Positions 32,492-61,040 of a stretch of DNA of 64,000 bases are shown in pieces. The translations under genes and the position numbers were made by a program. The stretch spans positions 544,001-608,000 of the forward strand of contig CAVSHB010000001.1 in NCBI GenBank assembly GCA_963727775.1, read 5' to 3'. Position 1 is the first letter of the stretch. Each line of letters starts with the position of its first letter. Under the pieces are notes generated by a model. It was not told the origin of the DNA. It worked only from the letters and a program-made list of their open reading frames with translations, and did not search any database. The stretch is from an uncultured Nitrospiraceae bacterium (GTDB lineage Bacteria; Nitrospirota; Thermodesulfovibrionia; Thermodesulfovibrionales; SM23-35).

Positions 32492-33613
32492 ATGAGGATT
32501 TTGCTGACAGCAGGCGTAAGGCCTAATTTTATGAAGATAGCCCCTCTCGTGCATGAGCTGACAAGATTGCAGACCGGCAGGCGGGACAATTGCAATCTGA
32601 GCTGGAAGCTTGTTCATACCGGGCAGCATTATGATTATGAAATGTCGAAGGTTTTTTTCGAGGAGCTTGATATACCTGAGCCGGATTACTTTCTTGGCGC
32701 CGGTTCGGGCAGCCATGCGGAACAGACGGCAAAAGTTATGGTGGAGTTCGAAAAAGTCTGTCTGGCGGAGAACCCGGATGTTGTTGTAGTTGTCGGTGAT
32801 GTAAATTCAACACTCGCGTGCTCGGTCACGGCGAAGAAGATGCAGATAGATGTTGCTCATGTTGAAGCAGGCTTAAGAAGCCGTGATATGTCGATGCCTG
32901 AGGAGATAAACAGGATTGTGACCGATTCCATTTCCGATTATCTCTTTGTTACGGAAGAGAGCGGTATAGAAAATCTCAGACATGAGGGCAGACAAAGAAG
33001 ACAGATATTTTTTGTCGGAAACATAATGATAGACACTCTTTATTACAGCCTGAAAAAACTGAGGGGCCGTGCTTTCGGTAGGAGCGCCGGTATGAAGGCA
33101 GTTGTCAGTACGGACGAAAGCGAATATGCTGTCCTCACGCTGCACAGACCTTCCAATGTAGACAATAAGGAAAAACTCGGGGATATTCTCTCAGCCCTGG
33201 CAGCAATATCAAAGGATATGAAGATAATTTTCCCGATACATCCGAGGACCCAAAAAAACATAGACACTTTCAACCTGAGCAATCTTCTGAAGTCTTCAAA
33301 TATTAAAGTAATACCTCCGATGCCCTATCTTGAGTTCCTTTGTCTTTGGAAAGACGCTGCGCTTGTGCTTACCGACAGCGGCGGGATACAGGAAGAGACA
33401 ACGGCCCTCGGTATCCCCTGTTTCACCATACGGGACAATACCGAAAGACCCGTCACTATTAAAGAAGGGACAAATATTTTGGTAGGTACTACTGGCAGGG
33501 CCATACTCTCCGCATACAGACGGTTTAAGAGAGGCGACCGGAAGCAGGGAAAGGTCCCGAAATTCTGGGACGGCAAAACAGCGAAGAGAATCATAAACAT
33601 TCTCGTGCGCTGA
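32492..33613 (+). CDS. wecB: UDP-N-acetylglucosamine 2-epimerase (non-hydrolysing)
   Basis: GVRPNFMKIAP, HTGQHYD, HVEAGLRS, MPEEINR, TDSGGIQEE, TERP. Confidence 0.95.
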   Translation: MRILLTAGVRPNFMKIAPLVHELTRLQTGRRDNCNLSWKLVHTGQHYDYEMSKVFFEELDIPEPDYFLGAGSGSHAEQTAKVMVEFEKVCLAENPDVVVVVGDVNSTLACSVTAKKMQIDVAHVEAGLRSRDMSMPEEINRIVTDSISDYLFVTEESGIENLRHEGRQRRQIFFVGNIMIDTLYYSLKKLRGRAFGRSAGMKAVVSTDESEYAVLTLHRPSNVDNKEKLGDILSALAAISKDMKIIFPIHPRTQKNIDTFNLSNLLKSSNIKVIPPMPYLEFLCLWKDAALVLTDSGGIQEETTALGIPCFTIRDNTERPVTIKEGTNILVGTTGRAILSAYRRFKRGDRKQGKVPKFWDGKTAKRIINILVR

Positions 33614-33689
33614 CGGGAAATTCAATTGACGATGAAATACTTTGATCGGATAAAAGCTTAGCCTGTATTGTTTATAATGCATAGAATAG

Positions 33690-33794
33690 CAGAGTAGATG
33701 CTATATCATCGCTCATTCTCGGTCCGCTTTGCGGACCTCCGAGGTATCCCGATAGGAATCGGGATAAAGCCGCTCTGATACAGCATCTACTCTG
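33690..33794. ncRNA. Unassigned structured element, copy 1 (19-bp closing stem plus two inner hairpins)
   Basis: CAGAGTAGATGCTATATCA pairs with TGATACAGCATCTACTCTG (18/19); inner GGTCCGC/GCGGACC and TATCCCGAT/ATCGGGATA; junction sequences shared with 56519-56622. Confidence 0.6.
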
Positions 33795-33809
33795 ATTGGT
33801 CAAAATATT

Positions 33810-34961
33810 ATGGATATACCTTTTCACAGACCATATATAACTGAAGAAGAAATTGCCGAAGTGGTCGATTCCATGAAATCCGGATGGATTACGATGGGAC
33901 CGAAGACGATAAAATTTGAAAATGAATTCGGGCTATATATAGGCGCGAAAAATGCCGTGGCAGTCAATTCCTGCACGGCTGCATTGCACCTTGCATTAAA
34001 GGCAATCGGCTTAAAGTCCGGCGACGAAGTTATCGTCCCAACAATGACTTTTACGGCCACGGGCGAGGTTGTCTGCTACTTTGGGGCGAAGCCGGTGCTC
34101 GTAGACTCGGAAGAGAATACACATAACATCGATGTCGCTGAAATAGAAAAAGCTGTAACACCCAGGACCAAAGCTATTATCCCCGTTCATTACGCCGGCC
34201 AACCGTGCGACATGGACGAGATAATGCGGATAGCCGGAAGCCATAACCTGAGAGTGATTGAGGATGCGGCCCACTCTTTGCCGGCATGGTACAAAGAAAG
34301 AAAAGTAGGAACAATAGGAGACATAACGTGCTTCAGTTTTTATGCTACAAAAACACTCTCAACCGGTGAGGGCGGTATGGTCACTACCGGAAATGATGAG
34401 TGGGCTGAAAGAATAAGGATATTGAGATTACATGGTATTTCCAAAGATGCGTGGAAAAGATACTCAGGCGAAGGCTCCTGGTATTATGAGGTTGTGGAGG
34501 CCGGATATAAGTACAATATGACCGATATACAGGCCGCGTTAGGGTTGGCCCAGCTCAAGAAAGTCGAATGGATGTGGGGACAAAGAAGAGAAATAGCGGA
34601 CAGATACACTGAAGCATTCAAGGATTCGGAGATAATAAAACCCCCGCATGGTAAAGCGGACAGGATTTCCGCCTGGCATTTGTATGTGATTCAATTGAAT
34701 CTTGAGTCATTGAGCATCGATAGATCACGATTTATTGAAGAACTCAGAATAAGAGGAATCGGGGCGAGTGTGCATTTTATCCCTTTGCATAAACATCCTT
34801 TTTACAGGAATGCTTTTGGGTATAATTCCGTGGATTTTCCGGTTGCCGAAAGGTTTTATGAACGGATTGTATCTCTGCCGGTTTATCCGGGGATGAAGGA
34901 TAGTGATGTTAATGCTGTGATAGGAGCAGTGGAAGATGTCTGCAGGAAATTCAGAAGATAG
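33810..34961 (+). CDS. DegT/DnrJ/EryC1/StrS family sugar aminotransferase
   Basis: SGWITMGP, NSCTAALHL, EDAAH, SFYATKTLSTGEGG, GYKYNMTD. Confidence 0.95.
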   Translation: MDIPFHRPYITEEEIAEVVDSMKSGWITMGPKTIKFENEFGLYIGAKNAVAVNSCTAALHLALKAIGLKSGDEVIVPTMTFTATGEVVCYFGAKPVLVDSEENTHNIDVAEIEKAVTPRTKAIIPVHYAGQPCDMDEIMRIAGSHNLRVIEDAAHSLPAWYKERKVGTIGDITCFSFYATKTLSTGEGGMVTTGNDEWAERIRILRLHGISKDAWKRYSGEGSWYYEVVEAGYKYNMTDIQAALGLAQLKKVEWMWGQRREIADRYTEAFKDSEIIKPPHGKADRISAWHLYVIQLNLESLSIDRSRFIEELRIRGIGASVHFIPLHKHPFYRNAFGYNSVDFPVAERFYERIVSLPVYPGMKDSDVNAVIGAVEDVCRKFRR

Positions 34962-45195: not shown

Positions 45196-45271
45196 TCCCG
45201 GGTAGCTCAGCCGGCAGAGCAGGTGGCTGTTAACCACCCTGTCGGGGGTTCGAATCCCTCCCCGGGAGCCA
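45196..45271 (+). tRNA. tRNA-Asn (GTT)
   Basis: Acceptor TCCCGGG/CCCGGGA, D-arm GCTC/GAGC, anticodon stem GGTGG/CCACC with loop CTGTTAA, TTCGAAT T-loop, encoded CCA. Confidence 0.97.
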
Positions 45272-47907: not shown

Positions 47908-48762
<855 letters not shown>

Positions 48763-48834
48763 ATTAAGTGTGCGTGAACTGTTATTAGGGGTCTCCCCAT
48801 AGTATATATGTTGACGCCGTCGATTCAGGGATTC

Positions 48835-48910
48835 ATAACCCCTCCTAACCTCCCCTTATCTTAAAGGGAGGATTTCCCCCTCTTGGGTTAAGAGGGGAAG
48901 GGGGGAGTTA
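48835..48910. repeat. C-rich/G-rich palindromic repeat (two hairpins) between nifH and nifD
   Basis: ATAACCCCTCCT..CCTCCCCTTA..AAAGGGAGG..CCCCTCTT..AAGAGGGG..GTTA; shares its left arm with 50413-50465. Confidence 0.8.
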
Positions 48911-48991
48911 CTTCGGTCAATTAAATCCCTAACGGTTTACGCTTTACACATCATCAGCTTACGTTTTTAATTATTGAATACAGGAGGATCA

Positions 48992-50416
48992 ATGAGCACG
49001 ACCATAAAAGACACACAGAAGATGATAGAGGAAGTTCTGGAGGTCTATCCGGAAAAAACGAAGAAAGACAGGAGCAAGCATTTGGCTGCCAATGATCCCT
49101 CCGGTCAATGCAGCAGTTGCCAGGTCAAGTCCAATATAAAGTCCAGGCCGGGCGTTATGACCGTCAGGGGATGCGCTTATGCGGGCGCAAAGGGTGTTGT
49201 CTGGGGACCTGTAAAAGATCAGGTCACCATCAGTCATGGTCCTGTCGGATGCGGCCAGTACAGCTGGTGGTCCAGGAGGAATTACTACAACGGTCAGACA
49301 GGGATTGATACCTTCGGCACCATGCATATAACGACTGACTACCAAGAGAAGGACATTGTTTATGGAGGCGACAAGAGTCTCTATGCAGCATTGCAAGAGT
49401 TGAAAGAGCTCTTCCCGCTTATGAAAAGCATGGGCATACTTTCAGAGTGCCCTGTCGGTCTCATAGGTGATGATATCGAGGCGGTGTCAAAAAAGGTATC
49501 AGCGGAGATGGGCATTCCCATTGTCCCGGTCAGGTGTGAAGGGTTCAGAGGTGTGAGCCAGTCGCTGGGACACCACATCGCGAACGATACGATCAGGGAC
49601 CATATCCTCGGCAAGGGTAAACTCGATAAATCTACCCCCTATGACGTGGCATTGATCGGGGATTACAACATCGGCGGTGACGCATGGGCGTCAAGAAAGA
49701 TGCTTGAAGAGCTTGGGTTGAGGGTCATCGCCCAGTGGACCGGTGATGCATCGATAAATGAGATGGGTATCGCGCATAAGTCAAAACTGAACCTCATTCA
49801 CTGTTATCGTTCAATGAACTATATCTGCCGGCACATGGAAGAACAATACGGCACCCCATGGGTGGAGTTTAACTTCTTCGGCCCGACAAAGATATACCAG
49901 AGCCTGAGGAAGATCGCATCATACTTTGACGACAAAATCAAGGAGAATGCTGAAAAGATGATCGAGAAGTACAAGCCCGTGATGGATGAAGTAGTTGAAC
50001 AGTTCAGGCCGAGGCTTGAAGGCAAGCAGGTGATGCTCTACGTCGGAGGCTTAAGGCCGAGGCATACTATCGGCGCGTATGAAGACCTCGGCATGGAGGT
50101 GGTTGCGGCGGGGTATGAGTTCGGACACAGCGACGACTATAAGAGGACTTATCCCGAGATGAAGGAGGGCGCAGTAATCATGGATGATGCAACGCTATAC
50201 GAATTGGAAGAGTTTACCCGGAGGCTGAGGCCGGATATGGTCGGGGCCGGTATTAAGGAGAAATATTCCTATCATAAAATGGGGGTGCCGTTCAGGCAGA
50301 TGCACTCATGGGATTACTCAGGGCCATATCATGGGTTCGACGGTTTCCCTGTGTTTGCCAGGGACATGGACATGACGGTAAACAGCCCGACATGGGATTT
50401 GATACGGAGGAAATAA
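48992..50416 (+). CDS. nifD: Nitrogenase MoFe protein alpha chain
   Basis: RGCAYAG, HGPVGC, SECP, HCYRS (Cys275 equivalent), [25 protein letters not shown] (His442 equivalent); GGAGG RBS. Confidence 0.99.
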
Positions 50417-50465
50417 CCCCTCCTTGCTCCTCCCCTTAAGATAAGGGGAGGATAGGTGGGGTTAT
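50413..50465. repeat. C-rich/G-rich palindromic repeat between nifD and nifK
   Basis: ATAACCCC..TCCTCCCCTTA-AGA-TAAGGGGAGGA..GGGGTTAT hairpin. Confidence 0.85.
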
Positions 50466-50507
50466 GAGGCAGCTCAGGCCGATAATAACTTAGGTATGGA
50501 GGATAAA

Positions 50508-52022
50508 ATGTCAAAACTGAAAATAAAGGACCACAATGAACTTTTTCTGGAACAGGAGTATCTCGATCAGTTTGAGAGAAAAAGAGAATTTGAAGATTGT
50601 CCGTCTGCGGAAGAAGTACAGAGAATAGCGGAATGGACAAAGACCGAAGAATATAAAGAGAAGAACTTCGCCCGGCAGCATATAAAGATCAACCCGGCGA
50701 AGGCATGCCAACCTTTGGGCGCGATCTTCTGTTCTTCCGGTTTTGAGGGCACGATGCCGTTTGTCCAGGGAGCGCAGGGGTGTGTCGCATATTTTAGGAG
50801 CCATCTGAGCAGGCACTTTAAAGAGCCGATGTCGTCGATCTCCACATCAATGACGGAAGATGCCGCGGTTTTCGGGGGCTTGAATAACATGATCGAAGGA
50901 TTGGAAAACGCCTATACGCTTTATAAGCCGAAGATGCTCTCTGTATGTACGACCTGTATGGCTGAGGTCATCGGAGATGATTTGAACGCTTATATAAGGA
51001 CGGCACGTGAAAAGGATATTATCCCTAAAGATTTTCCCGTACCGTTTGCTCATACGCCGAGTTTTGTGGGCTCTCACATAACCGGGTACGACAACATGAT
51101 GAAAGGAATACTGAGCGCCGTTACCACAGGCAGGAAGGGTGAGCCGAGCGGGAAGCTGAATATCATTATGGGGTTTGATACTTACACCGGAAATTACCGC
51201 GAGATGAAAAGGCTTCTAAAAGCGATGGACGTCGATTACACTCTGCTTTCCGATGCAAGTGATGTTTATGATTCGCCGAATACCGGAGAATACAAACTCT
51301 ATCCGGGAGGCACACCGCTGGAGGATGCGACCGGTTCCATCAATGCTGTGGCCACTGTAGCGCTCCAGAAGTATTCGACAGTGAAAACTCTGGATTATAT
51401 ACGGAAAGAGTGGGACCAGAAGGCCATCGCGCTTCCTCTCATCGGGATAAAGAATAGCGATAAATTTTTTGAAGAGGTAAGCAAGATTACTGGAAAACCG
51501 GTCCCACAGGAGATCGAGGACGAGCGCGGTCGGGTGGTCGATGCGATGGTCGACTCGCACCCCTATGTCCATGGAAAGCGGGTTGCCCTGGTCGGAGATC
51601 CGGATCTCCTGCTCGGAATGATCAGCTTCCTTATGGAAATGGGAGCATATCCGGTCCACATCGTATGTACTAATGGGGACAAAAAATTCGAGGACGAGGC
51701 ATATAAACTCCTGAGCGAGAGTCCTTTCGGGCAGGAAGGAAAGGGTTACATTCACAAGGACATGTGGCATCTGAGATCATTGATGTTCACAGACCCTGTT
51801 GACCTGCTCATCGGGAATTCATATGCAAAGTTTCTCTGGAGAGATACCGGGACCCCGTTGATCAGGATCGGGTTCCCGATATTCGACAGGCACCATCTCC
51901 ACAGATACCCGATCATCGGGTATCAGGGCGCCTTGAACCTCGTGAACTGGATCGTGAATACGGTTCTCGATGAGATGGACAGAAAAACCATAAATACAAC
52001 GAGCTTTGATGTAATAAGGTAA
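50508..52022 (+). CDS. nifK: Nitrogenase MoFe protein beta chain
   Basis: NPAKACQPLG, QGCVAYF, TTCMAEVIGDD, HTPSFVGSH, GFPIFDRH, C-terminal FDVIR. Confidence 0.99.
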   Translation: MSKLKIKDHNELFLEQEYLDQFERKREFEDCPSAEEVQRIAEWTKTEEYKEKNFARQHIKINPAKACQPLGAIFCSSGFEGTMPFVQGAQGCVAYFRSHLSRHFKEPMSSISTSMTEDAAVFGGLNNMIEGLENAYTLYKPKMLSVCTTCMAEVIGDDLNAYIRTAREKDIIPKDFPVPFAHTPSFVGSHITGYDNMMKGILSAVTTGRKGEPSGKLNIIMGFDTYTGNYREMKRLLKAMDVDYTLLSDASDVYDSPNTGEYKLYPGGTPLEDATGSINAVATVALQKYSTVKTLDYIRKEWDQKAIALPLIGIKNSDKFFEEVSKITGKPVPQEIEDERGRVVDAMVDSHPYVHGKRVALVGDPDLLLGMISFLMEMGAYPVHIVCTNGDKKFEDEAYKLLSESPFGQEGKGYIHKDMWHLRSLMFTDPVDLLIGNSYAKFLWRDTGTPLIRIGFPIFDRHHLHRYPIIGYQGALNLVNWIVNTVLDEMDRKTINTTSFDVIR

Positions 52023-52043
52023 CGCGAAAAATGCGGTCGATAG

Positions 52044-52190
52044 CAGGCATATATGCAGAGAAATCTTTCCAAATCGCAAATTTGGATTCAGGGGAATCAA
52101 TTGGGTATGCTGGAAAACATGAAGGTATATCCGGCTTGCAGTTGTCTTACAAAGGAGGCGATGGTAAAGCTTCCCCTGCATATATGCCTG
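52044..52190. repeat. 147-bp segment bounded by 15-bp perfect inverted repeats (MITE-like or long stem)
   Basis: CAGGCATATATGCAG (52044-52058) and CTGCATATATGCCTG (52176-52190). Confidence 0.7.
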
Positions 52191-52231
52191 TTCATTACTG
52201 CTGAATAAACGACTTTAAATAAGGAATAACG

Positions 52232-54895
52232 ATGTTAACAAACGTGGACAAACTTATTTCAAAAGGGTGCGACGTTGACAAGAAGGACAAAGTCTGCAGG
52301 TCCAGAGGCGGGGAGTCTTGCGCCTTCGACGGCGCTATGATTGTGCTTCAGCCGATTGCGGACACTGCACACATTGTCCATGGTCCGATTACGTGCTGCG
52401 GTAACTCCTGGGAAGGGAGGGGCACACTTTCTTCAAAAGGCAGCCTCCACAGGATGGGCTTCACAACGGATATCAATGAGATGGGCATAGTGTACGGCTC
52501 CGAAAAGAAGCTGTACTCCGCAATCTTCAAGGTATATGAAGCTGTCAGACCGAAAGCGGTCTTTGTGTACGCAACGTGTGTCAGCGGGTTGATCGGAGAG
52601 GACATAGAGTCTGTCTGCAGAAGTGCGGAGAAGAAATTGGGAATACCCGTTATCCCGGTAAACGCACCCGGATTTGTCGGCCCCAAGAATCTCGGAAATA
52701 GAATTGCAGGAGAGGTCCTCCTCGATTATGTCATCGGCAGCGGCGAGGTCCCTTATACAACGGATTACGATATTAATCTTATCGGTGAATACAACATAGC
52801 AGGTGATTTGTGGCTCGTTGAGCCGGTCCTCAGGCAAGCGGGCTTCAGGGTATTATCGAGGATTTCAGGAGATGCGGCGTTTGAAGAGATCACATACGCC
52901 CATAGGGCGAAGTTGAATGTCGTTGTTTGCAGCCGTGCGTTGATAAACATCGCAAAGGAGATGGAACAAAAATACGGCATACCGTATGTCGAGGTATCTT
53001 TCTTCGGAAAAACGGAAATGTCGAAAGCCCTGAGACTAATAACTTCAAATCTCTGCGAGATAGTTGGGACTGGGGCAGCTTTGGGCTTAAGCCTGTGTGA
53101 AAAGGTCGCGGCGATTATCGACACACAAGAGTCAATAATCTCAGAAAAATTAAAATCTTATGCGCATTTAAAAGGCATGAGGGCCATTCTGTATACCGGT
53201 GGAGTTAAAAGCTGGTCATTTATATCTGCTCTCCTGGATTTAGGAATTGAGGTTACGGCAGTAGGGACAAAGAAGAGCACCTTTGAAGATGAAGAAAAAA
53301 TGAAAGAGATACTGGGAGAGAACGCGCCGTTGATAGAGGATGTAACGCCGAAAAATCTTGCGAGACTGATGCGGGGAAATAACGCCGACATTCTTGTCGC
53401 AGGGGGAAGGAACCAGTACCTTGGAATAAAAGAGGGGTTCCCATTTGTGGACGTAAACCAGGAAAGACATACTGCTTATGCGGGATATGATGGATTGGTC
53501 AACCTTGCGGAGCAGATAAGCAACAGCATCGAATTTTATCGGAAAAGCTCAAATCCGTATTTGCCCGCCTTTTCTCAAGTGGGGAGCCGTGGGATTACTC
53601 CGGAGAAACTTGCAGCTCGAAACCTGAAGTCAGAAGATGTACTTGTAAATCCGTTAAAACATTCCCAGACGATCGGGGCTGCTATTGCTTTTCAGGGGAT
53701 TCATAAAGCATTGCCCATCATCCATGGGGCGCAGGGCTGCAACTTTCTGGCAAAGGTTTTATTGACAAAACATTTCAGAGAGCCGATAGCCCTGGCCGGC
53801 ACAAAATTGTTTACGGAAGATGTCGTTATGGGCAGTGAGGAAAACATTATAGGAATTGTTGAAGGATTTATAGAAAAGAACCATCCCGATATCATTGGGG
53901 TCCTCACATCCGGGTTGGCGGAGGTAAAGGGAGATGACGTCCATTCAATGGTGAAGCAGCTGCGGGCAAATATCGCGGGAAAAGGGAAAGGCTGTGAAGT
54001 TATCTCTGTTTCCACACCCGACTATGAAGGAGGACTTGAGACGGGATATGCAAAAGCTGTTGAATCCGTCATTGCGTATGTTGCGGATAATAAAGGTAGG
54101 CATGTATCTCCCTGCCGGCGTATCAATGTTCTTGCGGGATCACACCTCACACCGGCGGACTTTTGGGAATTGAAGGAGGTTATCGGATTGTTCGGTCTGA
54201 GGCCGTTAATGCTCCCTGACCTTTCGGCGCTTGACGGAAGCAGGCAGGGGTTTTCGCCTCTGGCCATGGGAGGCGCAAGTATTGATGATATAGCCGGGAT
54301 GGGAACGGCTGAATTTACCATTGCGATAGGACCCAGCATGGAACCTCCGGCAAAGGCGCTTAAAAAAAGATACGGCATCGAATACAGGGTCTTCGATAGT
54401 GTCTCCGGGCTGAACGACACGGATATATTTATGGAGACTTTGTCGATGATGAGCAACATCCCTGTCCCTTCACAATTTGAGAGACAACGGCGCGTTTTGA
54501 TTGATGGTATGAGAGACGCCCATTTTTTTTACGGGAACAAAAAGGTCTGCCTTGCGCTGGAAGCCGACCTTTCCATACAGATATCAAGGTTGCTTGATGA
54601 GATGGGCGCAGACGTAAGACTGGCGATCATCCCCGTACAGTCCGCGCATGCGCACAAAATGCCGGCGAAGGAAATAGACGTTGCGGATCTTTTTTCGATT
54701 GAAGGAGATTTTGATATCATGATTTCAAATTCTCATGCCGTGGATACCGCCAAAAAGCTTAAGTCGCCTTTGTACCAGATGGGCTTCCCGGTTTATAAGG
54801 TCCTGGGTACGACTTCAAAAGTCACTGTTGGGTACAGGGGAACGCTAACGCTTGTTAATGAAATCGCAAATTTGCTGATTAAGGAGGCAGACTGA
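52232..54895 (+). CDS. nifEN: Fused FeMo-cofactor scaffold NifE-NifN
   Basis: CAFDGA, HGPITC, YATCV, YTGGVKSWS, DVNQER (NifE), then NPLKHSQTIGA, HGAQGC, DLSALDG, GFPVY..GYRG (NifN). Confidence 0.95.
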   Translation: MLTNVDKLISKGCDVDKKDKVCRSRGGESCAFDGAMIVLQPIADTAHIVHGPITCCGNSWEGRGTLSSKGSLHRMGFTTDINEMGIVYGSEKKLYSAIFKVYEAVRPKAVFVYATCVSGLIGEDIESVCRSAEKKLGIPVIPVNAPGFVGPKNLGNRIAGEVLLDYVIGSGEVPYTTDYDINLIGEYNIAGDLWLVEPVLRQAGFRVLSRISGDAAFEEITYAHRAKLNVVVCSRALINIAKEMEQKYGIPYVEVSFFGKTEMSKALRLITSNLCEIVGTGAALGLSLCEKVAAIIDTQESIISEKLKSYAHLKGMRAILYTGGVKSWSFISALLDLGIEVTAVGTKKSTFEDEEKMKEILGENAPLIEDVTPKNLARLMRGNNADILVAGGRNQYLGIKEGFPFVDVNQERHTAYAGYDGLVNLAEQISNSIEFYRKSSNPYLPAFSQVGSRGITPEKLAARNLKSEDVLVNPLKHSQTIGAAIAFQGIHKALPIIHGAQGCNFLAKVLLTKHFREPIALAGTKLFTEDVVMGSEENIIGIVEGFIEKNHPDIIGVLTSGLAEVKGDDVHSMVKQLRANIAGKGKGCEVISVSTPDYEGGLETGYAKAVESVIAYVADNKGRHVSPCRRINVLAGSHLTPADFWELKEVIGLFGLRPLMLPDLSALDGSRQGFSPLAMGGASIDDIAGMGTAEFTIAIGPSMEPPAKALKKRYGIEYRVFDSVSGLNDTDIFMETLSMMSNIPVPSQFERQRRVLIDGMRDAHFFYGNKKVCLALEADLSIQISRLLDEMGADVRLAIIPVQSAHAHKMPAKEIDVADLFSIEGDFDIMISNSHAVDTAKKLKSPLYQMGFPVYKVLGTTSKVTVGYRGTLTLVNEIANLLIKEAD

Positions 54896-55290
54896 TGAAG
54901 ATTGCTTTTGCAACAACCGATGGCGTCAATGTCGATGAACATTTTGGAAGGGCGGGCATGTTCGCCATATACGACATGACAAAAGAAGGTTACACATTCG
55001 TTGAATTAAGAAAATTTGCCGACGGCAGGGACAAAGAGATAGAGGACACAAAGGGATTAGGGCAGTTACATGATGACAAAGTCCGTAAAAAAGTCGATTA
55101 TCTCAGTGATTGCAGGATAATTTACATTACGGAAATAGGCGGCCCGTCAGCAGCGAGACTTGTTAAGAAAAGCATGATGCCCATAAAGGTTAGAGAGAAT
55201 ACCCCGATAGAAAAATCCCTGCAGAAGCTTTTGGACACAGTCCAGACTTCTCCGCCGCCGTGGATAAGAAAGGCGCTGCAGGATAGATAG
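54895..55290 (+). CDS. nifX: NifX-family FeMo-cofactor carrier
   Basis: MKIAFATTD..VDEHFGRA, IGGPSAARLV, PPPWIRKAL. Confidence 0.9.
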   Translation: MKIAFATTDGVNVDEHFGRAGMFAIYDMTKEGYTFVELRKFADGRDKEIEDTKGLGQLHDDKVRKKVDYLSDCRIIYITEIGGPSAARLVKKSMMPIKVRENTPIEKSLQKLLDTVQTSPPPWIRKALQDR

Positions 55291-55333
55291 GCATGAAGAC
55301 CATTTTAGCTCCGTTTGGCACTGAATAGTAAAT

Positions 55334-55363
55334 GGTAGCCGCAGGCTTCAGCCTGCGGTTACC
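55334..55363. repeat. GTAG-type REP-like hairpin
   Basis: GGTAGCCGCAGGCT-TC-AGCCTGCGGTTACC. Confidence 0.7.
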
Positions 55364-55393
55364 TAAAACATATAAACACAGGAGGATTGAAAT

Positions 55394-55711
55394 ATGAAAA
55401 TGATCAGGGCTTTTATAAGACCGGAAAAGGAACAGGAAGTAGTATTGGCTTTGGAAGGCGCGGGGTTGTCATCTCTAACAAAGATGCCGGTGTTCGGCAG
55501 GGGCAAACAGAAGGGACTGCAGGTAGGCCCGGTGCACTATGATGAACTTCCAAAGACGCTTATTATGATGGTTGTTAACGATGATGATGTGGCAAAGGCT
55601 TTGAAGATAATCCAGGACAAATCAAAGACAGGCTTTGTGGGTGACGGGAAGATATTCATCAGTCCTGTCGAGAATGCATATACCATAAGAACAGGAGAGG
55701 CGGGACTATGA
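55394..55711 (+). CDS. nifI1: PII-family nitrogenase regulator NifI1
   Basis: MKMIRAFIRPEK, VFGRGKQKG, YDELPK, GDGKIF, YTIRTG. Confidence 0.88.
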   Translation: MKMIRAFIRPEKEQEVVLALEGAGLSSLTKMPVFGRGKQKGLQVGPVHYDELPKTLIMMVVNDDDVAKALKIIQDKSKTGFVGDGKIFISPVENAYTIRTGEAGL

Positions 55712-56124
55712 AGGAGATGACTGTAATTATAAGAAGAGACAAACTCCCTGAGACCAAAAACGTGCTTGAGGAACTCGGGTATCCCTCTCTCACAATACAG
55801 AGCGTTGACGGAAGGGGGAAACAGAAAGGCAGTATGTGTGATTATGCGGATGAAGAAATGCCGGAAAGCTTCTGCCCGGCTGTTAAACTCAAAGCGACGC
55901 CTTCTACATATGCGATAGAGCACACATTGCCTAAGGTCGCACTTTACGTGCCGAAGAGAATGCTGACTATCGTAGTGCCTGACGATGTGGTGAGCAAGGT
56001 TATCAAATCCATAATCAAGGTGAATCAAACAGGAAAGCACGGCGACGGCAAGATATTTGTAACACCAATCGAGGGTGCTTTGAGGATCAGGACCGGTGAG
56101 ATGGACGGCGAGGCAATTGCCTAA
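55708..56124 (+). CDS. nifI2: PII-family nitrogenase regulator NifI2
   Basis: MKEMTVIIR, GRGKQKG with long T-loop, PKRML, VNQTG..GDGKIFV, IRTGE..EAI. Confidence 0.88.
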   Translation: MKEMTVIIRRDKLPETKNVLEELGYPSLTIQSVDGRGKQKGSMCDYADEEMPESFCPAVKLKATPSTYAIEHTLPKVALYVPKRMLTIVVPDDVVSKVIKSIIKVNQTGKHGDGKIFVTPIEGALRIRTGEMDGEAIA

Positions 56125-56156
56125 ATATATGACAATTAAATAAACGGGAGGACGAT

Positions 56157-56435
56157 ATGCAACAGATAGTCGGATACACACGGGGCGGCAGAACCTGGAC
56201 GCCGAAATTCATTGAATCCATTGATATTGAAAAATGTATCGGTTGCGGCAGGTGTTATAAGGTTTGCAGCAGGGACGTCCTCGAATTGATCGAGAAGCCT
56301 TTTGAAGGAGAAGATGAATACGGAGACGACCTCGGCAACAAAGTTATGTCCATCTCGAACCGCGACAACTGCATAGGCTGTGAGGCATGTTCGCGGATTT
56401 GTACAAAGAAGTGCCATGTCCACATAAGTCTGTAG
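56157..56435 (+). CDS. fdxB: Nif-specific ferredoxin III (2x[4Fe-4S])
   Basis: TRGG..WTPKF, CIGCGRCYKVC and CIGCEACSRIC. Confidence 0.9.
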   Translation: MQQIVGYTRGGRTWTPKFIESIDIEKCIGCGRCYKVCSRDVLELIEKPFEGEDEYGDDLGNKVMSISNRDNCIGCEACSRICTKKCHVHISL

Positions 56436-56518
56436 AGGACTAAAACTTCTGTTTTTATTCCGTATCATAAAAAAAGGATGGCATAGCTTTAAGCCGCTTA
56501 ATTCATAAAATTTGTTGA

Positions 56519-56622
56519 TGCCGACAAATACAGTATTCGCGCTCATTCTCGGGCTGTCGCCCTCCGAGGTAAATTCTTTCTTTGAAAGAATTTAACCCGC
56601 TTAAATACTGTATCTGTCGGCA
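56519..56622. ncRNA. Unassigned structured element, copy 2
   Basis: TGCCGACAAATACAGTATT pairs with AATACTGTATCTGTCGGCA (18/19); inner GGGC/GCCC and AAATTCTTTC/GAAAGAATTT; same junctions as 33690-33794. Confidence 0.6.
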
Positions 56623-56653
56623 ATTTTATTGGATTTGGTAAAATAAACTACAC

Positions 56654-58336: not shown

Positions 58337-58471
58337 GGTCCAATATTTTTTACCCGACGGCTTATACTCTGTGTCTTTCAGCTATTTAACGGGTGCGATT
58401 TTCATTGGATATCGGTTATTATAATAAAAGAGGTAATTTCAGTTGATCTTGTTGTTGAACGGAGGCATCCT

Positions 58472-59194: not shown

Positions 59195-61040
59195 CGTATT
59201 TTCTTTTTAAAAACTACGAGGAACTCCATATGCTGCAATGATTTGAAGGCGATTTCTAATTTCAAGAAAATGGCTACAATTTTACCTTGAGCAGATCAAG
59301 AATCTTTTGCTGACTGTTATCCGGGGTGCAAACAATTCGGCACGAAGAGCCCTGCACTTGAAGTCTCTGCCTTCTCAGGCTCTTTAATCTCTCAATCACA
59401 TACTCAAATGTCCATCTGCGGTGTTTATTTTTTCCGTCAGACTGAAACAGAGGCTTTAGTCTCTGATTCATATGCCACTGCAAGTAGTAGGCAAGCATGC
59501 AAAGAAACACATGACAGCGGATTCGGTCGTCGGTCTTGTGATAAACGGGCCGCACCTCAAGCTGTACGCTCTTTAAGTTCCGAAACGCCTGTTCTACAAG
59601 AGCAAGCTTTTTATATGATGCCACTATTGCCTGCTTTGCCATCAGCCCGGCAGGAACATCGGAGGCAATGATGTAACAGCCGTCAATCAATTCCTCAGTC
59701 TCGATCTTCTCTGTTTTTAATTTCCATGTGAGACGTCCATCCTGTACTGACCACTCTACAAATTTACCTGTCTTCCACTTTCCCAGAACCTTCCCCACCC
59801 TTGCCGCTATCTTCTCGTTTGACGACTTCCGTTTTGATTGGGCTATGCTATCCAATGCCTTTCTGGTGACCTCAATCAAGCCTTTGCGTGTCACAGCTTC
59901 CCTTGTAGCGGTCTTTGGATTGCGGCATAAGCAGTATCGCCGTCCTATCGCCTCAGGATCCACTACTTCAATAATCTCCTTTTCATCAAACATATCGATC
60001 TGAATCACCTTGCGTTCCAGTAGCTCTTTTATCTGGTGGTGTGTTAATGCCGATATTATATTGAGCCCTTTTACATCCTTAACCTTTTCGTAATTGGCAT
60101 GAGTAACCATTCCACGATCACCTACAAAGATTATCTCCTGGATCCCATATTTTTTCTGCACCTCAGCTATTTTATCGGGTACCGTTTGAGCATCCTGAGT
60201 ATTCCCAGGGAAAACTTCCACACCCACAGGGCACCCCTCGGGACTGCAAAGCAGCCCTATCACCATCTGTTCATGCCCCCGCTTGCCGTCCCGGTTATAT
60301 CCGAATTTAACGATCTCACTGTCTTCATACTCGCCCTCAAAATAACTGCTGGTTATATCGTAAAGCACAAGCGCGCCGTTTCGGAGATGCTTTTTCGCCA
60401 ATGTACTTTGGATGGCATCCTGCCTCTGTAAAAGACGATCCATAGGCTCATAACAATGCTTATCTACGTCAACCGGCCCTTCTATCCCGCAGAGTTCCCA
60501 TAATGCCGTGTCCTCCCATCTGTGCGATAAAGCCAGCTTGCTGCCGCTATATACTAAACGGCCGATTATCATGGCAAGACAGTCTTTAACCCACTGCTCG
60601 GAATATCTCGAATAAATCATCTTGTCCAACTCTAATTCCTTCGCCAACTGCAATACCGCATAGGAAGCGCCGTACTCTTTCGATTCCGCGATTTTGTGAG
60701 CGTCGGCTGAACCCTTTACCAGCACATCGCCCCTGAAGGCGGCCTGTATGAGCTTTAGTTGTTCAAGACTCATATCCTTAATGGTCCCATGTGTCGTGTG
60801 CCTGATTTCGCCCTTCTCACGGAAGGTAGTGCGAATAACGCCGTAGTGCTTATTGCCGGAAGTCTGTATTTCGAGATGGGGGCGTGGCTTCTTTTTAAAT
60901 GGCATGGCTACTATTATAGGATATGATTACCACTATGTCAACTATAAAATGCTATATTATATGGCTACATTTGAAAGCCAAATACACGGTAATCTATTGT
61001 AATATAAGCATTTATGGGTGTTTTCATAAAAGAAAATACG
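59195..61040 (-). mobile_element. IS1634-family insertion sequence, 1846 bp
   Basis: 13-bp perfect terminal IR CGTATTTTCTTTT/AAAAGAAAATACG; flanking 6-bp direct repeat CTGAGG (59189-59194 and 61041-61046). Confidence 0.88.
59274..60905 (-). CDS. IS1634-family DDE transposase
   Basis: LYDITSSYFEG, FGYNRDGK, FPGNTQD, VGDRGM, YKKLALVEQAFRNLKS, RPVYH..RIRCHVFLCMLAY. Confidence 0.95.
   Translation of the reverse strand: MPFKKKPRPHLEIQTSGNKHYGVIRTTFREKGEIRHTTHGTIKDMSLEQLKLIQAAFRGDVLVKGSADAHKIAESKEYGASYAVLQLAKELELDKMIYSRYSEQWVKDCLAMIIGRLVYSGSKLALSHRWEDTALWELCGIEGPVDVDKHCYEPMDRLLQRQDAIQSTLAKKHLRNGALVLYDITSSYFEGEYEDSEIVKFGYNRDGKRGHEQMVIGLLCSPEGCPVGVEVFPGNTQDAQTVPDKIAEVQKKYGIQEIIFVGDRGMVTHANYEKVKDVKGLNIISALTHHQIKELLERKVIQIDMFDEKEIIEVVDPEAIGRRYCLCRNPKTATREAVTRKGLIEVTRKALDSIAQSKRKSSNEKIAARVGKVLGKWKTGKFVEWSVQDGRLTWKLKTEKIETEELIDGCYIIASDVPAGLMAKQAIVASYKKLALVEQAFRNLKSVQLEVRPVYHKTDDRIRCHVFLCMLAYYLQWHMNQRLKPLFQSDGKNKHRRWTFEYVIERLKSLRRQRLQVQGSSCRIVCTPDNSQQKILDLLKVKL

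Follow-up and report, generated by a model that had tools for sequence, protein, structure and literature searches.

A structured three-way-junction core within IS1380-ended miniature inverted-repeat elements of a Nitrospiraceae bacterium and in other phyla

Why should a folded intergenic sequence that abuts the start codon of an aminotransferase gene recur elsewhere on the same contig with identical joining strands? The question arises in a 64,000-nt stretch of DNA from an uncultured Nitrospiraceae bacterium, referred to here as the window, with copies of the sequence at 33690..33794 (copy 1) and 56519-56622 (copy 2). A first-pass annotation of the window took the pair for an undescribed cis-regulatory leader, possibly a riboswitch, selected for structure. 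On re-reading, both copies are present at these coordinates, and CGCTCATTCTCGG, CCTCCGAGGTA and a TAA..CCGCT segment are exact, common to both and in the same order. The limits of the element had been drawn too short, by ~30 nt on either side. The stems had been called unrelated in sequence yet still paired; the pairing is confirmed, but the closing stems belong to related subfamilies. Similarly, one A-C mismatch per stem was claimed, which is correct for copy 1, while copy 2 has two.

Anatomy of the two copies and the leader reading

Copy 1 lies on the downstream side of wecB (UDP-GlcNAc 2-epimerase; 32492..33613, plus strand), a host gene outside the element. TTAG (33658..33661) is the left copy of its 4-bp YTAR target site; the right copy has been lost, and the assignment follows the target-duplication pattern of other copies. 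The adjoining left terminal inverted repeat (33662..33679, plus strand) is decayed but of IS1380 type, as judged by alignment with subfamily copies and IS1380 ends. The core is best described on the minus strand. Folding places its closing stem, P1, between arm 1 (33690..33708) and arm 2 (33776..33794), giving 19 bp with one A-C mismatch on plus that reads G-T on minus. Between these arms are an invariant junction strand (33709..33721; T-CGCTCATTCTCG on plus; its minus strand is rich in purines and is predicted to form a tandem G-A beside P1), the P2 hairpin (33722..33736), which is a variable and exchangeable module, a second invariant junction strand, CTCCGAGG (33737..33744), with a CTC bulge and a helix with CTCG, the P3 hairpin (33745..33766), whose length in other copies ranges between about 15 and 120 nt, and the conserved junction strand AAGCCGCTC (33767..33775). 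A right-end remnant (33795..33809, plus strand) is truncated against the native ATG of the downstream host gene, which encodes a DegT/PseC-like aminotransferase (33810..34961, plus strand). The folding z-score of copy 1 is -8.1 for the minus strand as DNA and -7.9 for the plus strand as RNA, and none of 200 shuffles folded equally well.

Copy 2 is located between the nif ferredoxin gene fdxN and an L,D-transpeptidase gene. It comprises, on the plus strand, a TTAA target half-site (56489-56492) with the left inverted repeat (56493-56511), both within 56489..56511, then, on the minus strand (56520..56622), P1 arms at 56520-56539 and 56602-56622 with the same core (56540-56601) between them, and finally a decayed right inverted repeat (56623..56640, plus strand). 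The window also contains a complete nif cluster (47920-56435: nifH, D, K, fused nifEN, nifX, two PII genes and fdxN), a tRNA gene (45196-45268) and, at 59274-60905 on the minus strand, an IS1634-family transposase gene whose ends are unlike those of the element. In another genome, a copy (L642) is found between nifEN and nifX.

That copy 1 is a riboswitch or leader for the polysaccharide genes downstream is extremely improbable, despite the contact of copy 1 with the DegT start codon and a three-way junction with conserved joining strands. The absence of a known-family match was borne out, as Rfam gave nothing relevant in the window at E<=5, nor in 20 diverse loci from other genomes at E<=2; the Rfam results also lent no support to a likeness with hammerhead, twister-sister, SAM-I or K-turn motifs, and these comparisons were abandoned. 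The TATAAT (33673-33678) and the DegT ATG (33810) had been correctly placed, but the former belongs to the decayed left inverted repeat, where no sigma-70 promoter was called; neither promoter nor terminator was called at copy 1. All six DegT homologues examined lack the element upstream yet have the same gene start (MEIPFH or MDIPFH). Nor is the motif confined to two copies. In this genome, 74 copies stand next to unrelated genes in every arrangement (by crude ORF calls, the gaps that hold 70 of them are 35 tandem, 19 divergent and 16 convergent), and tabulation of downstream genes and orientation revealed no consistent sense placement upstream of related genes. In other genomes, Pfam annotation of 104 of 139 flanking ORFs yielded no recurrent family and no transposase. 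Moreover, the transcribed strand carries the weaker fold, and the many copies with target duplications are what the first-pass annotation itself had said would mark a mobile repeat. The element is thus real but is not a riboswitch. An earlier side remark, that the fold may act on the minus strand or as DNA, is supported by the results below.

A type II MITE with the ends of a resident IS1380

In the home genome (G000; 3.43 Mb in 4 contigs), the 13-mer occurs in 51 exact copies, 70 copies have no more than one mismatch per segment, 74 match the covariance model (R1), and nhmmer returns 79 matches including fragments. Full units have ends that read CCCAC.TAATTCATAAA ... TTATGAATA.TGTGGG and are 154-195 bp long where both ends align. 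The same ends bound four IS1380 copies of 1650-1651 bp in this genome, each encoding a 448-aa transposase (NF033539 at 409 bits). Of the 70 copies, 47 allowed both ends to be located (most of these copies are decayed), and 12 of the 47 have YTAR on both sides; identical 4-mers flank ten of the 12 (p=5e-4 against an expectation of one third). Flanks are identical in two of the four IS1380 copies and non-identical in the other two, and most old MITE copies are without matching duplications. A filled/empty pair (L055) places an insertion at a stop codon, and YTAR insertion sites are often stop codons. Occupancy is not conserved. The comparison, which excluded 20 Competibacteraceae loci, covered 42 loci of other genomes with both neighbours in G000. 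Of their junctions, 18 proved conserved, and just one of the 18 holds a copy in G000, compared to a background of 67 in 1364.

The repeat therefore has the features of a MITE: short, non-coding and dispersed copies, inverted-repeat ends of a resident autonomous IS, and target duplication. It is classified here, with high confidence, as a non-autonomous MITE of ~155-190 bp that has the ends of the resident IS1380, inserts at YTAR and duplicates 4 bp. It is presumably mobilized in trans by the resident IS1380 transposase. Since the R1 core was absent from all 13 IS1380 loci searched, the MITE is of type II, with an interior that was not derived from the IS by deletion as in type I.

Several other arrangements were noted in G000. 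A second family of IS1380-like elements, in 9 copies scoring about 205 bits, has different ends and mostly TTAA flanks, at C1:215601, 306302, 924113 and 1259225, C2:384798 and 689066, and C3:286189, 334992 and 526013. Adjacent inverted pairs of MITE copies, often of mixed subfamilies, suggest insertion beside or into the ends of earlier copies; these are at C1 266717-266983, 732680-732962, 517125-517418, 831300-831534 and 1378098-1378389, C2:292806-293065 and C3:471821-472102. A proposal that P1 is a captured host terminator was unsupported, since empty operon junctions are 1-47 nt long and have no such stems.

An interior conserved across end types and phyla

The core is not tied to IS1380 ends. 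One genome (G374, 43 matches) has it within a second end type with 5-bp duplications, and a member of the Competibacteraceae (G373, 45 matches) within a third with 3-bp duplications; ISs bearing these two end types were looked for but not found. In three further genomes, the core occurs without recognizable ends (103 matches in G375, 111 in G377 and 21 in G376). Such end-less families may be MITEs that have eroded, or they may move by a different route; inspection of Planctomycetota copies by eye found no vestigial ends. The absence of the core from 13 IS1380 loci, the three end types and the end-less families of 21-111 copies together argue that the core is independent of the IS. The middle of the element would thus be a separate, older module that is not IS-derived, and MITE ends of several IS types appear to have picked it up and spread it. 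In G374, the invariant strand of four loci (L205, L207, L213 and L219) is interrupted between CGCTCA and TTCTCG by a second hairpin element.

A search by sequence pattern, which disfavoured AT-rich stems, found at least 121 loci, and R1 matched 66 of the 74 that were scanned, in Planctomycetota, Latescibacterota, Gemmatimonadota, Parcubacteria, Saccharibacteria, Desulfobacterota and Nitrospirota. Handelsmanbacteria gave a weak R1 match only, and the eight R1-negative loci (e.g., in Micromonospora and Lachnospiraceae) look like chance matches. Overall, the core ranges over Nitrospirota, Planctomycetota, Gemmatimonadota, Latescibacterota, Desulfobacterota, Patescibacteria and Gammaproteobacteria, at 1 to >100 copies per genome; whole-genome R1 counts were 107 in a planctomycete, 45 in a gemmatimonad, 13 in a desulfobacterium, six in a parcubacterium and five in a latescibacterium. 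Carriage is patchy, with 43 of 101 genomes in the home class, 5 of 121 in a Desulfobacterota sample, 7 of 81 in a Gemmatimonadota sample and 2 of 61 in the Competibacter order (centres included). Carrier genomes are mostly MAGs, and mis-binning is argued against by lineage-specific stems and loops and by flanks made up of ordinary host genes. Viral contigs held no exact pattern match, and plasmid and phage collections gave no blastn match.

The claim of selection on structure was upheld on this broader set. Pairing holds in 93% of cells in an alignment of 24 diverse copies, where both-side changes number 149 as against 48 in shuffled data (0/500 shuffles as high), affecting 22 of 31 pairs. A further 68 model-fitted copies pair at 92.6%, with 607 both-side changes as against 185, in an alignment that leans to the model. 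Pairing in P1 is 0.7-1.0 as far as position 20, or 22 in the gemmatimonad, beyond which it drops to background, among copies with at least 10 of 14 pairs. Over positions 1-18, within-genome identity of P1 is 44% (planctomycete, 31 copies) to 70%. It would appear that the length of P1 matters and not its sequence. From Parcubacteria to Planctomycetota, the recurring parts are a set of 25 identical nucleotides and a 20-bp stem.

Divergence within one G000 subfamily of 25 copies is distributed very unevenly. The two main junction strands have two changes in 500 positions (0.3-0.5% divergence), the CCGCT segment has nine in 125, and the unpaired AAAN has 18 in 100; stems diverge by 3-9% and the bulge by 23%. 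The MITE ends have 230 changes in 900 positions (16% and 36% by end) in a count that is ungapped, so that indels inflate the figures for the ends. Seeds for this set tolerated one mismatch per strand, and the model added just four copies. Judging from the divergence of ends and junction, the parts needed by the transposase decay while the core does not. In ten single-copy genomes, too, the core is largely intact, at ten different housekeeping sites. Copies at one locus can differ by exchange of their P2/P3 modules (L157/L085 and L516/L519). Rearranged forms also exist, namely inverted cores, core-less copies and head-to-head dimers. L543 and L578, for example, are head-to-head dimers with two left halves, and G000 C4:4088 is a core-less copy with fused arms.

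Which strand, which molecule and which explanation

Strand asymmetry was assessed in 55 de-replicated stems out of 228 distinct ones. A-C on plus, which is G-T on minus, occurs 78 times, compared to 26 for G-T on plus (p=3e-7), and the minus strand is the better fold in 48 (as RNA) or 49 (as DNA) of the 55, the plus strand being weaker by 6 kcal/mol. Among all 228 stems, the pair beside the core is T-C on plus in 151, yielding tandem G-A on minus. Of 142 P2 variants, seven have c-GNA-g triloops and five have GNRA tetraloops on minus, and none has either on plus. The shortest P2 reads GAGCGAAGCGAG on minus and contains the stable DNA mini-hairpin GCGAAGC.

With respect to transcription, plus is the mRNA strand in 29 of 35 tandem gaps of G000 (29:6) and in 41 of 54 cases (41:13) elsewhere, the latter from BLAST-validated genes around 209 elements, 45 of which have no validated neighbour; a cruder orientation count gave only 20 vs 15. 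The few scorable cases in Gemmatimonadota and Latescibacterota are reversed, with minus as the sense strand. L490 (Parcubacteria), a copy in the rpoB-rpoC gap, is oriented such that the mRNA contains the folded strand. No clear bias towards either replication strand is apparent (44:30, weak skew). A DNA-level role is favoured in that the strand mostly absent from mRNA would be the one that carries the working fold; counting against it, the orientation bias with transcription points to an RNA-level effect of some kind. Exposure of the minus strand in single-stranded form, if it occurs, could also produce its G-T excess by mutation. GNRA tetraloops are on minus as well, and the comparative data do not separate ssDNA from RNA, a distinction described as hard to draw by comparison in PMC5737381.

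Where P2 tips carry GGA, it is on minus in 18 of 18 cases from Competibacteraceae, 9 of 9 from Latescibacterota, 6 of 6 from Gemmatimonadota, 9 of 9 from Desulfobacterota and 4 of 6 from CPR, but on plus in 11 of 15 from the planctomycete. A GGA hairpin loop is the binding consensus of CsrA/RsmA. A sponge for this protein was nonetheless rejected, as GGA tips occur in only 4 of 58 in G000, and csrA in one of five carriers (whose genomes are incomplete).

The explanation preferred here, at slightly less than even confidence, is a strand-specific DNA structure that is bound by a predicted protein and spread by MITE ends. The minus strand would fold into a three-way junction with purine-purine pairs, set on a stem of ~20 bp, and would act most likely as DNA extruded between genes as a hairpin or cruciform. 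A putative structure-specific protein would bind the extruded fold, and its binding would keep each core intact after the transposon ends decay. The invariant strands may enable hairpin modules to be swapped between copies by recombination, and MITE ends of several IS types would capture the core and disperse it. A less likely explanation, and still a serious one, places the function in RNA: a co-transcribed copy would present its 20-bp stem as a processing or stabilizing signal, cut by an RNase III-type enzyme or blocking an exonuclease, and the junction would be read by an RNA-binding protein, perhaps on antisense RNA. A two-turn stem is suitable for RNase III, copies sit right behind stop codons and within operons (rpoB-rpoC, trpE-trpG and nifEN-nifX), and the orientation bias fits; RNase effects have also been described for the ERIC and Correia elements (PMC10969869). 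However, the usual mRNA strand is the weaker fold, with pyrimidine-pyrimidine and A-C mismatches, both orientations persist (including the reversed cases above), and a conserved antisense promoter was not seen.

Rather unlikely is a selfish core that moves itself, whose junction would be the substrate of a mobilizing enzyme (an HUH nuclease, recombinase or reverse transcriptase) and for which IS ends would be incidental. Patchy carriage with bursts, end-less families of >100 copies, and the inverted cores, core-less copies and dimers are all in line with such an element. A partner gene, however, was found nowhere: not as a recurring neighbour in Pfam searches of 150 of 209 candidate frames from other phyla or of the 104 flanking proteins above, not beside the copies of the ten single-copy genomes, not in 15 dense regions compared all against all, and not as a gene-bearing long form in a long-insert scan of 472 elements. 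These searches identified no binding protein either, which counts against the preferred explanation. Y1 transposases do not follow carriers (Y1_Tnp searched in 40 entries, two of them duplicates), and site-specific P1 stems are still paired in single-copy genomes without a donor. Finally, under neutrality, template-switch repair would keep the arms complementary and gene conversion would keep the middle uniform without selection. Such events do occur, as shown by module swaps and by cores inverted within their arms; this reading is nevertheless improbable and largely refuted, as it leaves unexplained the cross-phylum junction, the variable AAAN in an otherwise invariant tract, the fixed 20-bp length and the intact single copies. 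The most far-reaching reading is possible but more doubtful than the preferred explanation: the core would be an undescribed cross-phylum single-strand nucleic-acid module, in which a three-way junction, purine-rich and invariant, stands on a 20-bp stem that serves as a ruler whatever its sequence. A specific protein is predicted to read it, and it would have moved between phyla, been captured repeatedly by unrelated transposon ends and been selected at up to 100 sites per genome.

Relation to known repeats

MITE interiors are usually regarded as filler. In the present element, conservation lies in the interior, and the ends are dispensable. To our knowledge, the reason for the elaborate folds of ERIC, bcr1 and RPE repeats has long been unexplained. 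If the most far-reaching reading is true, the core would represent a new class of structure-encoded chromosomal site, or else the substrate of a mobilizing enzyme, beyond MITE filling. The core offers a defined bait for protein pull-down and precise mutations for testing; a natural structured-ssDNA site or a new mobilizing enzyme may come to light in this way. A caution also follows, in that covariation screens will label such repeats riboswitches.

As described in PMC10969869 and PMC3184786, type II MITEs such as Correia, RUP, Nezha and QMITE share with the present element a short, non-coding, intergenic nature, the repeats of a resident IS, target duplication and a stable fold. Unlike them, the interior here is common to several end types and phyla and far more conserved than the ends; MITEs at 95% identity rarely cross genus limits according to PMC11602168. 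The ERIC/IRU elements of PMC2759123 (Table 1a) also have a rod-like fold with a central hairpin and one strand that folds better, and their motif order is similar by eye (CGCTCA, helix, hairpin, CTC bulge, helix, GCCGC). ERIC differs in its TA ends and duplication, a length of 127 bp and the lack of a third arm, compared to 4-bp YTAR and 154-195 bp here. Homology with ERIC/IRU was rejected, as R1 run without filters matched none of five E. coli K-12 ERIC copies (L471-L475). The sole R1 match in K-12 (58340-58421; L476:1501-1582), at 20 bits and E=0.48, includes the two outer junction strands, lacks a P2 arm and P1 pairing, and is probably due to chance.

According to PMC3184786, bcr1 of the Bacillus cereus group is likewise a ~155-bp mobile repeat with direct repeats, compensatory changes and a cruciform-like fold; it is confined to one species group, and the likeness drawn here is one of description. 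MRSC-65-2, one of the mobile/repeat sequence candidates of PMC11109978, is multi-copy and covarying, occurs in diverse phyla and possibly acts at the DNA level, but consists of one long stem that bears a UYCCGG repeat; the distinction applies to that MRSC only, as 249 others exist. REP/REPIN-RAYT systems and IS200/IS605 end hairpins resemble the core in having a strand-specific intergenic fold at high copy number, whereas the present element is five times longer and has a three-way junction, a 4-bp duplication and DDE-type ends. REP/REPIN-RAYT was rejected because no Y1 nuclease lies beside any copy examined or tracks the repeat, and integron attC because the flanks are conserved operon genes in place of arrays of single-gene cassettes with an integrase.

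No published description of the core motif was found, although the supplementary repeat-motif lists of PMC11109978 and PMC5737381 may contain it; exact 12-mers retrieved only two papers, both unrelated, and the best 20 of 362 literature matches listed included no description of an IS1380-ended MITE. The core is apparently undescribed, and its novelty is provisional. A different repeat core, GCGG-CGTAC-loop-GTACG-CCTC, gave no R1 match in the 74 of 125 loci scanned (L223-L347). In Desulfobacterota, NC10, Acidobacteriota, Rhodothermales, Myxococcota and others, it lies within MITE-like rods of many end types, and the ends of two of its loci (L311 and L316) are IS1380-like.
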